64,000 nucleotides of DNA, taken from assembly GCA_045593845.1 (NCBI GenBank), contig JAZNXK010000004.1, positions 78,296 through 142,295 on the forward strand. Reading direction: 5' to 3'. Position numbers and translations under genes: made by a program. The notes beneath the pieces were generated by a model that was not told where the DNA came from, searched no databases, and saw nothing but the letters and a program-made list of their open reading frames with translations. The DNA is from Alphaproteobacteria bacterium (lineage in GTDB: Bacteria; Pseudomonadota; Alphaproteobacteria; RF32; CAG-239). Shown one piece after another: positions 31,474 to 40,907 of this stretch. Every line of letters starts with the position of its first letter. The stretch's first letter is position 1.

Positions 31474-31552
31474 AGCCTTCTGCCTGAAACTTTCTTGCGC
31501 AATTCCCTGCCGCGCCATATCATTTGCCAACTCATTTTCTCTGTTTGTCCAT
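31474..31552 (-). pseudogene. chimeric scrap of the modular toxin family at the left edge of the element
   Basis: About 25 nt match the linker region of 36791..37423. These are joined to ~52 nt near-identical to the module-B region (ENELANDMARQGI) of 39001..39909. Confidence 0.6.
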
Positions 31553-31651
31553 AATGAAAGTCGAAATACCTCAAACAAAAAAAAATACTAAACTTTGTCT
31601 AGATTACAAACTTTGTTTGACATTTATATTTTTACGTCATAAAAAACAAAA

Positions 31652-32008
31652 TTACAGCAACCCTAGCCATCCCACATATAAGGGAAATAAAAATACTAAC
31701 TTAGCTAATCTGGGGTGATTTTTCATATTACTTGTTGCAATCAGAAAAAATAATGCAGAAATAATCAAACTATATTTACAACTTTGCATATACAGTTGTT
31801 GATTTTGGTAATTCCATGCCCCATTTGTAGCTTCACTTCCCCAAATCATATCGTTTATCGCCGGCGGATTGAAATATTCTGACAGTAATAAGGCAAAAAA
31901 TGCCATATCCAAAATAACGAACCATTTAAACTGCCATAGAAGTTTAATGATTTCTGCTATGTTTTGCTTTATATTTTGCATAAATTGACCTACTTGTTCT
32001 CGAAACAT
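31652..32008 (-). CDS. 4-TM membrane protein, paralog of 32066..32437 (candidate immunity protein)
   Basis: Shared blocks with its neighbour: KLLW.FKW, GAWNY.NQ, TSNM.NHP.LA. Confidence 0.6.
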   Translation of the reverse strand: MFREQVGQFMQNIKQNIAEIIKLLWQFKWFVILDMAFFALLLSEYFNPPAINDMIWGSEATNGAWNYQNQQLYMQSCKYSLIISALFFLIATSNMKNHPRLAKLVFLFPLYVGWLGLL

Positions 32009-32065
32009 TGTTTTATTTTAAAGATTGTAACTATGATTAATATTACAACAACATAAAATATCATC

Positions 32066-32437
32066 TTAACTAACCAAAGCAAATAACCACTCACATATTA
32101 TAATAAATGTTCCCAACAACATAACTATCCACGGAGATGCAAATATAATCCTTGCCAACAATGGATGATTGCGCATATTACTGGTACCAATAAGAAATAT
32201 AAGAGTATCAATAATAAAATATAATTTCATACTGCCAATATATACTTCCTGATTGATATAATTCCATGCGCCGCGTACATATTCGTAATGGAATATCGGA
32301 TCATTCTCGGCAGGAATAGCTATTAAAGTATATCCTGAAATAACATAATATATCAAATACAGTCCAACATACCACTTAAACGACCACAAGAGTTTGAAGG
32401 TATCTGATATCGCTTGCTTTACTTTATCTTGAAACAT
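32066..32437 (-). CDS. 4-TM membrane protein (candidate immunity protein)
   Basis: Paralog of 31652..32008, directly downstream of the YkuD-like toxin remnant. Confidence 0.6.
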   Translation of the reverse strand: MFQDKVKQAISDTFKLLWSFKWYVGLYLIYYVISGYTLIAIPAENDPIFHYEYVRGAWNYINQEVYIGSMKLYFIIDTLIFLIGTSNMRNHPLLARIIFASPWIVMLLGTFIIICEWLFALVS

Positions 32438-32516
32438 GTTGTTATCCTAAAGGTTGTAATTACTATATTATATCAACAAAAACAAAAGGCAAGGAATTTT
32501 TCCTTGCCTTACATTT

Positions 32517-32795
32517 TTACCATTCCTTCGGATATTTAACATATACCGGAACAGAATCTTGACAATCATCCAAGTAATTACTTAATTTTCCGGTTTGCCA
32601 CGGAATATCTATACATCCGGCTGAACCTTTACTCCAGCCGCCATGAATGAAAAATCCATTACGCTCATAAGTATTGGTCGCAAAGTTTGGTATTGCAACT
32701 CATCTTGAGCTGTAAATCCGCTTTGGTCAACACCATAGCTATCTATCTCCGTTTTGATACCCGAACGGTGATTGATATTTCCCGAAAAAATCCAT
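32517..32795 (-). pseudogene. degenerate modular toxin: N-module with a frameshifting deletion plus a C-terminal YkuD/Tlde1-like fragment
   Basis: ATG at 32795 gives MDFFGKYQSPFGYQNGDR-stop. A shifted frame gives DSYGVDQSGFTAQDELQYQTLR. A third frame gives NGFFIHGGWSKGSAGCIDIPW..VYVKYPKEW-stop. A minus-strand terminator follows at 32487-32511. Confidence 0.65.
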
Positions 32796-38476: not shown

Positions 38477-38554
38477 CTTGTTTTTCCTTATATAAAAAGT
38501 TTGACAATGTTCGAAAATAAATTTAACCTCTCTTTGTTCTAAAGGAGATAATTC

Positions 38555-39004
38555 ATGAAGAAAATTTTAGTGCTTGTCATTTTACCTTTAATCTATTGCC
38601 TTAATGTTTCTGCTGCAGAAAAAAATATTGATATCCTTGAAAAGGAATTTATAGATTGCGCAGATAGTTGGGAAAAACATGAACAAAAATGTCCGGAATC
38701 ATGGAGTATGAAATGTTATAATCACTTAATGACTGCTCATAAAAATACTCAACAATGCTTTCAAAAAGTTGCAGTAAAATTGTTCACAAATTTCTACGAG
38801 TTATCTGAAAAAGAAGCAAATAAAAAGATTGATGATTTTCTCAAATTCACCTATGACCAATATTTCTTCATTTTTGCCGAAACCGATTTTTGCAAAAAGA
38901 ATAATTGCGGCCTCTCAATATATTTATATAGCGAATATGTAACCACTGACCAATTACGATATTATGTAAACAAAATAATTAGGTCTATATCTGCCAGAAA
39001 TTAA
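38555..39004 (+). CDS. secreted Cys-containing helical protein, possible LprI/DUF1311-like lysozyme inhibitor (candidate immunity protein)
   Basis: AAGGAG RBS and signal peptide ..LNVSA/AE. Convergent with the GH108 cargo gene, overlapping it by 4 nt. Confidence 0.6.
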   Translation: MKKILVLVILPLIYCLNVSAAEKNIDILEKEFIDCADSWEKHEQKCPESWSMKCYNHLMTAHKNTQQCFQKVAVKLFTNFYELSEKEANKKIDDFLKFTYDQYFFIFAETDFCKKNNCGLSIYLYSEYVTTDQLRYYVNKIIRSISARN

Positions 39005-39909
39005 TATTCATTATACCTTTTTCTGTGCCCTCTTTCAAATATTATTTGTGATGGGTCTTTTTTCAGATATTCATCTTCTGCTCGGTTTACATTATTTATA
39101 AAATCTGTTCTTATAGCTTTATAATTTGTATTTCTGACAGCTCCCAAAGTATCTGAACCTATTATACCATCTGCCTTAACTCCGAGAGCTTTTTGCAAAT
39201 TCATAATTGCTGTCGGTTGCCCTTGCACAACACCATCATCAAAAACTATACCTGCCAATTCGTCAGGAAGTTGATTTATTTTGGGTTTTAACCAATAATC
39301 TCGATAATATATTGCATCAGCTCTTTCTCTTGTCATATTTTCTATATCTTCATCCGGATAAATACGCGAACTTATACCATAATTTGTAGCTCCACCTCTA
39401 TCATTCGGATGATTAACATACCCGCCCTCATTTGCTCTGGTTCTATTCATTGCTTGTTGAAAGCGATTATCAGCTAACATTTGATCAATAAATGATTGAC
39501 TAAAATCATTTCCATACAAAGAATAATCAATATTAGCTTCTTGATTACCATCATTCATAACCGTCGACAATACATTTTGAGCATATTGAATAGCCGATTC
39601 ATTTGTTGGATTATTCTTTGCCAAATTTAATGCTGCTTGCACAGTCGGACTAATACTCGCAATATCAAGCCCGCCTCCGCGCAAACTTGCATTCTGCCAA
39701 AAGTTTGCTACATACTGCGGATAATCGCACTGCGCAATTCCCTGCCGCACCATATCATTTGCCAGCTCATTTTCTCTGTTTGTACGCAATGTTTGATATT
39801 GCAACTCATCTTGCGTTGAAAATCCGCTATGATCAACTCCATAACTGTCAACCCCATTGTCACCGTTTTGATACCCAAACGGCGATTGATATTTCCCGAA
39901 AAAATTCAT
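39001..39909 (-). CDS. modular toxin-family protein: N-module plus GH108 lysozyme plus peptidoglycan-binding domain
   Basis: EGGYVNHPNDRGGATNYGI is the GH108 signature. It is followed by a PG_binding_3-like LQKALGVKADGIIGSDTL. Confidence 0.8.
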   Translation of the reverse strand: MNFFGKYQSPFGYQNGDNGVDSYGVDHSGFSTQDELQYQTLRTNRENELANDMVRQGIAQCDYPQYVANFWQNASLRGGGLDIASISPTVQAALNLAKNNPTNESAIQYAQNVLSTVMNDGNQEANIDYSLYGNDFSQSFIDQMLADNRFQQAMNRTRANEGGYVNHPNDRGGATNYGISSRIYPDEDIENMTRERADAIYYRDYWLKPKINQLPDELAGIVFDDGVVQGQPTAIMNLQKALGVKADGIIGSDTLGAVRNTNYKAIRTDFINNVNRAEDEYLKKDPSQIIFERGHRKRYNEY

Positions 39910-40000
39910 CTTGTTTTCTCCTTTACATAAAAAAAAGAGCCATAACGGCTCCTGTAAAAAAATTTTGAAAATTTCAAGTAAACATAAACAACAAAAAATC

Positions 40001-40237
40001 CTAAAAAGGTAAACCTTTCTGCTTTTTCAAGATATTTTCTTTAGTTATAGGTACACATCCTATTTTTTCATCCCAAGTTAAACAATCTGATCGGCATATT
40101 TTTTGCTCAGGGTCATAAATTTTTCCCCCATCAAGGCAAACCATTTTCATATCTAGTTCAAAATAACAATAAATAGCAATTATCATAATTACAAAAAAAC
40201 AAACCAGATATTTTATAATTTTTTTAATACTTTTCAT
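40001..40237 (-). CDS. membrane-anchored Cys-rich small protein (candidate immunity protein for the SAA-like cargo)
   Basis: N-terminal TM plus CLDGGKIYDPEQKICRSDCLTWDEKIGCV. Overlaps the upstream gene by 14 nt. Homologues lie at 56346..56528 and 56476..56874. Confidence 0.65.
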   Translation of the reverse strand: MKSIKKIIKYLVCFFVIMIIAIYCYFELDMKMVCLDGGKIYDPEQKICRSDCLTWDEKIGCVPITKENILKKQKGLPF

Positions 40238-40907
40238 TAATGCCCTCCACTCTCTGATAACGACAGGCTTCTTTAGAGTCAGAATAAAAAGGATTATCCA
40301 CTAATTCTCTCGCCTGAAAATTTACATCCCTATCATGCCAATAATCAGCCAAAGCATCAGGATACGACATTCCTTTGTAATATCTATTCTTGAAATAGTC
40401 AAATACTTCTTTTTCATTTCCTAAAACTTTCGCTGCTAGTTTACCATACATTCCTCTTTGTGCAGCCTCATAATTGCCTTTACAATGAAAATAATCATCT
40501 CCACCAATAGTATTGTCAGATTTCATATCAAAATAATTGCGCACCATATCCATGGTACCACCAAGAACTTGTCGCATTGGAGATTGCTGAGTTTGTTGTT
40601 GTGCAGGCAAACTTCTTGCTAAATTCAGTGCTGCTTGCACTGTCGGGCTCAACCTTGAAATATCATAATTTGTTCCATTTGACAAATTATTACCCCAAAA
40701 ACCCGTGCCATACTGCGGATAATCGCACTGCGCAATCCCCTGCCGCGCCATATCATTTGCCAGCTCATTTTCTCTGCTTAATCGCAAATTTTGATATTGC
40801 AGCTCATCTTGTGTTGAAAATCCGCTATGATCAACTCCATAGCTGTCAACTCCGTTATCTCCGTTTTGATACCCGAACGGTGATTGATACTTTCCGAAAA
40901 AATCCAT
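40224..40907 (-). CDS. modular toxin-family protein: N-module plus serum-amyloid-A-like C-terminal domain
   Basis: DDYFHCKGNYEAAQRG aligns with the vertebrate SAA core DKYFHARGNYDAAKRG. The gene starts 12 nt after the endolysin stop. Confidence 0.75.
   Translation of the reverse strand: MDFFGKYQSPFGYQNGDNGVDSYGVDHSGFSTQDELQYQNLRLSRENELANDMARQGIAQCDYPQYGTGFWGNNLSNGTNYDISRLSPTVQAALNLARSLPAQQQTQQSPMRQVLGGTMDMVRNYFDMKSDNTIGGDDYFHCKGNYEAAQRGMYGKLAAKVLGNEKEVFDYFKNRYYKGMSYPDALADYWHDRDVNFQARELVDNPFYSDSKEACRYQRVEGINEKY

Follow-up and report, generated by a model that had tools for sequence, protein, structure and literature searches.

The window analysed here, 64,000 nucleotides (nt) of contig JAZNXK010000004.1 from an alphaproteobacterium of the RF32 lineage, contains at 31.4-40.9 kb six to eight minus-strand genes in which a near-identical N-terminal module of about 95 amino acids (aa), hereafter the N-module, is joined to unrelated C-terminal domains (Table 1, array 1). 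The open reading frames (ORFs) 40224-40907, 39001-39909, 38063-38476, 35357-36418 and 34373-34633, all on the minus strand, open with MDFFGKYQSPFGYQNGDNGVDSYGVDHSGFSTQDELQ, and tblastn of the module located copies at 40907, 39909, 38476, 36400 and 34588, together with a degenerate copy at 32824-32678 and a scrap of its second part, module B, at 31557-31480. Thus, all the starts listed in a first-pass annotation made from the sequence alone, which had described an array of proteins sharing one N-terminus and diverging afterwards, were recovered. At the DNA level the module forms 4-6 direct-repeat copies of 61-300 nt with 62-100% identity to the reference copy (mostly at least 80%), far beyond chance, in agreement with the near-identity that had been claimed. 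Modules A and B are followed by a linker in the two variants already noticed, NYDIS(K/R)LSPTVQ and LRGGG(L/I)DIASISPTVQ, and thereafter the sequences are unrelated. The array proposed at 31474-40907 was confirmed, but these coordinates leave out a second array at 56148-57553 (array 2).

The cargos called SAA-like and GH108 plus peptidoglycan (PG)-binding correspond to PF00277 and PF05838, respectively, and no Pfam match was obtained for the glycine-zipper, Gly-rich and KHGV cargos. The 22 residual residues cannot verify the call of a YkuD-like remnant, but the two genes downstream belong to class c8, whose membrane-protein genes follow Tlde1 cargo at other loci, and this pair (31652-32437) looks like orphan immunity genes.

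Table 1. Features of the two arrays and of the neighbouring phage lysis genes, in window positions; toxin, partner and small RNA (sRNA) denote predicted roles. TM, transmembrane.
Feature	Position	Strand	Evidence or remark
Toxin 1: N-module (A+B+linker) and prok-SAA (lipocone) domain, 227 aa	40224-40907	-	PF00277, E 3e-20
Toxin 1 partner: 78 aa, N-terminal TM helix and four-Cys domain, class c11	40001-40237	-	
Toxin 2: N-module, GH108 muramidase and PG_binding_3, 302 aa	39001-39909	-	PF05838, E 3e-23
Toxin 2 partner: signal-peptide protein of 149 aa, class c4	38555-39004	+	
Toxin 3: module A only (37 aa) joined directly to Gly-zipper-like cargo, 137 aa	38063-38476	-	
Gly-zipper cargo partner: multi-TM protein of 160 aa	37497-37979	-	98% identical in L001; homologue after the same cargo in L086
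Orphan of 210 aa: linker variant 2 and Gly-rich cargo, modules A and B lacking	36791-37423	-	
Gly-rich cargo partner: TM protein of 114 aa, class c6	36453-36797	-	
Toxin 4: N-module, shared pre-toxin region and KHGV domain	35357-36418	-	likely start 36400
sRNA gene 1, convergent with toxin 4	35186-35350	+	promoter TTGACT-N17-TATATA at ~35186-35214; unit 35232-35313; bidirectional terminator 35312-35342; 84.5 bits, E 9e-19
Orphan KHGV domain, 126 aa	34801-35181	-	repeat D5, 75% DNA identity
sRNA gene 2, convergent with the orphan KHGV gene	34648-34805	+	promoter at ~34648-34676; unit 34692-34774; terminator 34772-34797; 81.1 bits
Stub: N-module A+B only, 71 aa (P0002)	34373-34588	-	
Degenerate module A/B and truncated cargo remnant	32609-32881	-	
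Two paralogous multi-TM genes, class c8 (32066-32437, 31652-32008)	31652-32437	-	90% identity to L071
Module-B scrap at array edge	31444-31578	-	adjoins chromosomal phosphodiesterase gene
Putative holin	41341-41628	-	overlaps endolysin gene; inferred from position and single TM helix only
Endolysin (Hydrolase_2)	40920-41354	-	directly upstream of array 1
Spanin-like overlapping pair: TM i-spanin and lipobox o-spanin	33753-34227	-	sequences, architecture, weak Rz-like spanin match (E 7e-4)
Array 2	56148-57553	-	between early/regulatory region and small terminase; partly decayed
Array 2: frameshifted module A	57463-57365	-	
Array 2: linker and SAA cargo	56887-57405	-	
Array 2: four-Cys membrane-protein partners	56476-56874 and 56346-56528	-	closely resemble 40001-40237
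Array 2: module-A stub	56154-56324	-	

A scan of the GTDB species genomes gave 113 relatives of the N-module, and 80 loci were kept with flanks of 10 kb on each side (L numbers below designate the loci and contigs compared). All of them belong to uncultured metagenome-assembled genomes (MAGs) from gut or rumen (yak, sheep, goat, deer, horse and human), labelled nearly always as Alphaproteobacteria or proteobacteria, including records of the type 'Azospirillum sp. 51_20'. An exhaustive profile search of 1.84 billion cluster representatives (50% identity) returned 289 members, 113 at E <= 1e-30; the module begins at residue 1 in almost every one of the 289, and lengths reach about 600 aa. Since the matches listed by protein homologue searches were all short or partial members (at most 189 aa in one search and 175 aa in another), the full-length catalogue was built from the genome loci and the representative search.

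Over the ~95 aa of the conserved region, 71 sequences share 18 invariant positions, including GY, D.YGVDHS.F, DE, YQ, R, E, P and F. Among the 158 proteins scanned no Pfam or NCBIfam match to the module was found, nor any PADLOC match, in line with the first impression that it resembles no described domain. The assumption that module A is probably disordered was not supported: AlphaFold2 predicts a moderately confident small fold, with a predicted local distance difference test (pLDDT) of 73.6, a predicted template modelling score (pTM) of 0.65 and helices at 32-56 (the long one) and 88-99, and residues 21-70 reach pLDDT 82-86 with a 129-sequence alignment. In fold searches of PDB and BFVD this model had no match with E < 1. 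The module was not found in 2.9 million IMG/VR contigs or in a plasmid search, and megablast of the array region against phages gave no match. In INPHARED (50,697 phage records) it occurs on only one unverified 5-kb virome scaffold, which has no phage genes but carries an SAA toxin with its partner, and a regulator. The 'broken-hairpin' domain (PMC12419801) was considered as its identity and discarded, that domain being C-terminal and without immunity genes. It is concluded that the N-module is a putative, undescribed and lineage-specific domain of the trafficking type, polymorphic toxin systems as such being already known.

A minimal form of the module was also observed: in P0270, P0278 and L086 (6591-6950), the first ~13 residues of module A (MDFFGSYKSPFGY) are followed at once by the KHGV domain, the fusion point being a shared 'NGE', which suggests either micro-homology recombination or that the extreme N-terminus could be the essential signal.

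The C-terminal 120 aa of 77 full-length genes were grouped into 16 clusters, with at least 12 unrelated C-terminal classes. Recognisable cargos are prok-SAA, GH108/PG_binding_3, Tlde1/YkuD, Pesticin/phage lysozyme, SLT, T6SS_VgrG3-like_C (E 4e-35) and GH46; judged by these domain matches, the identifiable cargos are established periplasm-acting antibacterial toxin domains. Prok-SAA belongs to the lipocone superfamily; cleavage of lipid-carrier head groups is predicted for this polymorphic-toxin tip, whose coupled immunity domain carries four conserved cysteines (PMC12419801). The description of that immunity domain in the same source fits the proteins encoded at 40001-40237, 56346-56528 and 56476-56874.

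The class of the gene that follows a toxin gene depends on the cargo. In the contingency of cargo class against next-gene class, SAA cargo is followed by c1, c13 or c11 in 22 of 31 cases, Gly-rich cargo by c6 in 7 of 8, Tlde1 cargo by c8 or c9 in 12 of 19, and cl8 cargo by c7 in all six; GH108 cargo is followed by c4 on the opposite strand, convergently (5/10), and Pesticin cargo by c12, likewise convergent on the opposite strand. All these partner genes are small and encode TM, signal-peptide or lipoproteins.

Stubs and orphans comparable with those of CdiA and Rhs arrays had been pointed out at the window. Orphan cassettes do retain the distal part of the N-module, given that clusters c2, c15, c16 and c31 begin inside module B or the linker and are then followed by partners. 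The window orphans are those at 36791-37423 and 34801-35181, and orphan cassettes, N-module stubs and runs of orphan partner genes are common across loci. A near-identical prophage in a yak-rumen MAG (L001/L002) has the two arrays at the same sites, but what they contain and its order differ: L002 has three intact toxin-partner units where array 2 of the window has a frameshifted gene and a stub, and in L001/L002 the full N-module is on the Gly-zipper cargo and the GH108 cargo is orphaned, the reverse of the window. In a third related prophage, beside the same Band_7/NfeD genes, the array content is again different. Most loci are small islands amid housekeeping genes; secretion, phage and lysis genes do not recur around them, and no vgrG, hcp, PAAR or adaptor gene recurs near the 80 loci (+/-10 kb) or in the window, so that the original remark that no secretion system is encoded nearby extends to the flanks of the other loci.

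Regarding regulation, a gene of 150-240 aa, c0, lies directly upstream of the first toxin gene in 23 of the 80 loci (L005-L011, L033, L044, L064-L068 and others); the window lacks it. In its long forms c0 includes an XRE-type helix-turn-helix (HTH) domain, that of a regulator, which ruled it out as a secretion partner. At several first toxin genes the palindrome TGCAAAATTTTGCA is found ~25 nt upstream of the ribosome-binding site (RBS), and c0 and this palindrome are probably a dedicated regulator and its operator. Many non-first units, most of those in the window included, have a GC-rich hairpin and a T-run 5-25 nt before the RBS, the stems varying between genomes and the position being constant. 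The hairpin, T-run and RBS reported before the starts of the window genes were located at 39953-39935, 36444-36424, 32858-32828 and 34294-34278, and also in array 2, and terminator-like sites in the region number 18, as against 6.7 +/- 2.6 in shuffles. These inter-unit hairpins are read as putative terminators of the preceding toxin-immunity or immunity transcript, in which case transcription of downstream toxins would occur by read-through or by phage late antitermination.

The KHGV class follows a different rule. These genes have no conserved downstream ORF, and in every case examined a hairpin and a conserved element come next, corresponding to a convergent sRNA gene; the sRNA-like element suspected at the window is real in that it has a promoter, covarying units and a terminator. 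Its layout comprises a sigma-70-like promoter (TTGACW-N17-TATAWW), an invariant CCTTAAGGTA, one to four tandem units of ~83 nt and a bidirectional terminator abutting the stop codon of the toxin gene. Each unit forms three helices, namely a closing stem, a conserved hairpin (CAAUAGG/CCUAUUG) and, after a GUAUC linker, a variable hairpin; when single units were folded without constraints, both hairpins were always predicted and the closing stem failed to appear in just one. A covariance model found 15 units in 1.13 Mb, single or in tandem and just downstream of KHGV genes, with two exceptions: a unit in L013 follows a cl5-type cargo gene, and there is a second copy in L008 whose upstream context was not checked. 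In the alignment, 91.7% of cells are paired, as against 36-54% with the partners slid, and 24 of 28 pairs show compensatory double changes, values reached by none of 500 shuffles, although they are somewhat inflated because the alignment was fitted to the model. At the two window sRNA loci Rfam gave no match at E <= 1. In the held-out contigs L086-L089, every translated KHGV 3' end, including three C-terminal fragments of 59 aa and one of 89 aa, is followed by an opposite-strand unit at 25-40 nt. The family is present in the window, L008, L012, L013, L019, L026, L073 and L086-L089. Scans of metagenomes for more copies gave 0 matches with the exact pattern and three chance matches with a relaxed one.

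Two other identities for this element were discarded. Indels and stop codons that differ among copies rule out a small ORF. The resemblance to the 5' coding region of module A, which would make it an antisense RNA, is within chance for a loose pattern, and on its true strand the RNA is sense-like to module A instead of complementary.

Variants of the KHGV domain co-cluster with their adjacent units (e.g., RNA 91-96% and protein 82-84% identical; Mantel r 0.23, reached by 21 of 5000 permutations), a pattern which simple linkage would also give. The domain had no Pfam, PADLOC or PDB sequence match and no sequence relatives outside the lineage. Its AlphaFold model is weak (pLDDT 57.8), and the only top fold matches, non-significant ones, were to CdiA-CT, HigB, RelE and MqsR, so that an RNase-like fold would be a lead and not a result. 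Taking into account the convergent placement after KHGV genes and the cassette behaviour, the RNA appears to hold the place and orientation of an immunity gene: its units resemble protein immunity genes in position, in a convergence like that of c4 and c12, in co-variation with the toxin variant and in forming orphan arrays. It could thus be proposed, tentatively, that the sRNA is the immunity factor of the KHGV class, binding and neutralising, or decoying, a toxin that probably targets RNA, and that the N-module would, separately, define a novel way of delivering envelope toxins among gut Alphaproteobacteria. This arrangement recalls type III toxin-antitoxin (TA) systems (ToxIN-like), in which a protein toxin is also accompanied by a structured, tandemly repeatable RNA with a terminator between the two genes. 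However, type III RNAs are encoded upstream of a ToxN/AbiQ-type endoribonuclease, with which they are co-transcribed and which processes them, and are made of pseudoknots of 34-36 nt, whereas here the RNA gene converges on the toxin gene from the opposite strand, under a promoter of its own, and the units are ~83-nt three-helix junctions; moreover, the KHGV toxin has no ToxN/AbiQ match and is a member of a putatively exported polymorphic toxin family.

The left half of the window is host chromosome (UvrD, Pta-AckA, MoxR, Band_7/NfeD and phosphodiesterase genes), and a minus-strand prophage spans from ~31.4 kb to past 63 kb. Its genes encode small and large terminase subunits, a P22-like portal and a major head protein, a cI-like repressor, a Peptidase_S74 protein of the fibre/ejection type, a tail fibre and a tail-collar fibre, and, for lysis, a putative holin, a Hydrolase_2 endolysin and spanin-like proteins. 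Array 1 begins 12 nt past the endolysin stop codon and stops before the spanin-like pair, which places it within the lysis cassette; array 2 is found between the early/regulatory region and the small terminase gene, immediately upstream of the latter. The Band_7/NfeD and type I phosphodiesterase neighbourhood (28861-31431) also flanks N-module arrays in L086 (11281-12378) and L082 (12941-14062), for which reason this site seems to be a recurrent integration or island hot spot, and the distal scraps (31444-32881) may be older than the prophage.

Two further observations concern other genes of the window. Next to the cI-like repressor, 59431-60105 (minus strand) encodes a protein of 224 aa in which TM helices at the N-terminus precede a Tlde1-like C-terminal domain; it shares 31% identity over 75 aa with a Tlde1 cargo (E 2e-4) and has homologues in 13 of the loci compared. 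By eye, it has no cysteine after the conserved HGG, where the other Tlde1 cargos of the family have G-C-I-D, and its role may be that of an inactive decoy or a protective one. In the chromosomal part, three tandem paralogous ORFs of ~440 aa (8471-12689, minus strand) are 35-38% identical to a stretch of L059, and a Pfam scan of one of them (8471-9805) gave no match.

Taken together, it is probable that the region represents a polymorphic toxin-immunity system of antibacterial type, which a temperate phage carries as cargo ('morons'). Cargo diversity, class-specific next genes, established toxin domains and orphan cassettes all point, at the level of sequence, to the toxin-immunity reading already put forward in the first-pass annotation. 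According to this proposal, each toxin would consist of the conserved ~95-aa N-module, a low-complexity linker and an exchangeable C-terminal domain, the recognisable ones attacking the envelope from the periplasm (peptidoglycan glycosidases, Tlde1 of the L,D-transpeptidase type and the prok-SAA lipocone), and the adjacent gene for a small membrane, signal-peptide or lipoprotein would encode the cognate immunity factor. In the case of the KHGV cargo, the partner may be the convergent structured sRNA and not a protein. The near-identical DNA of the N-module would be the recombination substrate that shuffles, duplicates and truncates cassettes, giving rise to stubs, orphans and chimeras, and the hairpin and T-run before later units would end the preceding immunity transcript and hold downstream toxins low, barring read-through. 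Given that array 1 lies between endolysin and spanins, toxin 1 is probably made with the late lysis genes and freed when the induced prophage lyses the cell. The N-module would then traffic the toxin, either by import across the outer membrane of the target, as in colicin M and pesticin, or by loading onto a secretion apparatus encoded elsewhere.

Some results weigh against this proposal. The Gly-zipper, Gly-rich, KHGV, cl5 and cl8 cargo classes have no assigned activity, machinery for export or import was not found in the window or in the locus flanks, and the spanin call depends on a weak match (E 7e-4). Within 10 kb of about 75 of the 80 loci there is no phage or lysis gene, and therefore lysis-dependent release cannot be general. 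Furthermore, the strong conservation of the N-module (18 invariant positions), along with a prediction of partial folding, suits a conserved binding partner better than a rapidly evolving receptor-binding domain. Three candidates for delivery can thus be considered: lysis release followed by colicin-like import, a secretion system encoded elsewhere, and association with the virion. The first agrees with the position of array 1 in the lysis cassette, the presence of Pesticin among the cargos, the partners encoded on the opposite strand, the length of the N/Q/T-rich linkers and the precedent of ColIb, which has no lysis gene of its own and is released by means of prophage lysis genes (PMC7374059); against it speak how highly the module is conserved and how many loci have no phage context.

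The second candidate leads to the most serious of the alternatives, which we regard as possible though clearly less probable: the proteins would serve as effectors for a contact-dependent secretion system whose genes lie in another part of the genome, a type VI secretion system (T6SS) being the most plausible one, with the N-module as a loading or marker domain like MIX, FIX, RIX, PIX or WHIX and the prophage only mobilising the toxin-immunity pairs. As in those effectors, a short conserved N-terminal domain, here predicted to be folded, defines a polymorphic class with periplasm-acting cargos and adjacent immunity, often in orphan loci or mobile elements (PMC10435454, PMC12135965), and the scattered 'orphan' loci found here recall those of MIX and RIX effectors (PMC10435454). 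The cargos also overlap those of antibacterial T6SS effectors, since they include VgrG3-like_C (E 4e-35), Tlde1 and prok-SAA, the last being listed with T6SS delivery. However, the N-module bears no sequence relation or Pfam match to any known T6SS marker domain, vgrG, hcp, PAAR and adaptor genes do not recur near the 80 loci (+/-10 kb) or in the window, and a literature search found nothing tying RF32-type Alphaproteobacteria to T6SS; nor is the host lineage one known to use it.

That the products are virion-associated ejection proteins or lysins, with an N-module that targets the phage particle and delivery into the attacked cell, as in MuF toxins or the T4 internal proteins, seems improbable. 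Both arrays lie in late-transcribed parts of the prophage, a placement kept in related prophages, and many cargos are peptidoglycan hydrolases. In addition, the KHGV toxin of L088 (4271-5257) has an N-terminus 51% identical over 37 aa (E 4e-8) to the phage protein encoded at 45961-46887 of the window, which ends in a Peptidase_S74 domain and matches virion structural and ejection proteins in PHROG; in this toxin, ~40 residues of virion type replace module A, which means that chimeras of virion-protein N-termini and toxin cargo exist, and the window-type linker also weakly resembles the 45961-46887 protein (E 0.026). MuF toxins offer a precedent, being prophage polymorphic toxins with immunity genes near packaging and head genes (PMC5576092), as array 2 abuts the small terminase gene. 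Nevertheless, there is no MuF domain match, most family members are outside prophages, amid chromosomal housekeeping genes, and the absence of the module from IMG/VR and its restriction in INPHARED to one scaffold without phage genes do not fit a known virion-targeting domain; nor did BFVD give a fold match. Cognate partners, orphan cassettes and an upstream XRE-type regulator typify toxin-immunity loci and not structural genes. What remains of the phage link is the position of array 1 inside the lysis cassette and the single L088 chimera.

Finally, the idea of spare or alternative endolysins and lysis accessories, with the N-module as a regulatory or export domain and no inter-bacterial role, could account for the location of array 1 between endolysin and spanins and for the distant match of the GH108 cargo to a 'holin-associated N-acetylmuramidase' model (64.8 bits, the cutoff being 240), but it is very hard to sustain when non-lytic cargos (SAA lipocone, Tlde1, Gly-zipper and KHGV) are frequent, partner genes are class-specific, most loci have no holin or phage context and the phage already has its own Hydrolase_2 endolysin.

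The toxin-immunity system proposed here can be compared with those already described. The general framework of polymorphic toxins, covering CdiA-CT/CdiI, Rhs and MafB arrays, is reportedly that of Zhang, Aravind et al. in 2012. As in those systems, a conserved N-terminus precedes a hypervariable C-terminal toxin with its immunity gene next door, and, as in CdiA-CT, Rhs and MafB arrays, orphan tip/immunity cassettes retain a conserved stretch and recombination would swap cassettes. Unlike them, the proteins of the present family are short (200-450 aa), without signal peptide, repeats or pre-toxin peptidase, their N-terminal domain matches no described trafficking domain, whole N-modules and not tips alone are reiterated in the arrays, and one cargo class is paired with an RNA gene.

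The family also resembles colicin M and pesticin/Pim, small soluble toxins without signal peptide in which an N-terminal trafficking region and a flexible linker precede a C-terminal envelope-targeting domain; the Pesticin domain itself is among the cargos. Membrane or periplasmic immunity proteins, some of them encoded on the opposite strand, and release through lysis, which is probable here, would be further points in common with colicin-like bacteriocins. Ahead of the cargo there is a single ~95-aa module, predicted to be partly folded, and a linker; a receptor-binding domain is not recognisable and neither a Ton nor a Tol box is verified, DHSGFSTQ being like the TolB-box DGSGWSSE by speculative resemblance only. 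The module is also far more conserved than is usual for the receptor-binding and translocation domains of colicins. Unlike colicins, the family is chromosomal or prophage-borne and not plasmid-borne, phage lysis genes and not a dedicated lysis gene flank array 1, and an XRE-type regulator and the TGCAAAATTTTGCA palindrome are found where a LexA box would be expected, although LexA boxes were not searched for.

Two candidate features would go beyond ordinary polymorphic toxins, namely the insertion inside a phage lysis cassette and, for one class, a structured sRNA family in the place of the immunity gene. If the proposal is correct, the N-module would represent a new family of trafficking domains for polymorphic toxins in RF32-like uncultured gut and rumen Alphaproteobacteria, whose competition biology is essentially unknown, and it would offer a handle for finding antibacterial domains, at least five cargo classes having no known relatives. 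The toxin cassettes within the phage lysis cassette would constitute a testable case of a phage arming its lysogens with bacteriocin-like weapons released by the phage lysis machinery. To our knowledge, though no literature search was aimed at this point, there is no report of a polymorphic toxin neutralised by an RNA; if the KHGV sRNA were indeed the immunity factor, the logic of type III toxin-antitoxin systems would be joined to inter-bacterial warfare.

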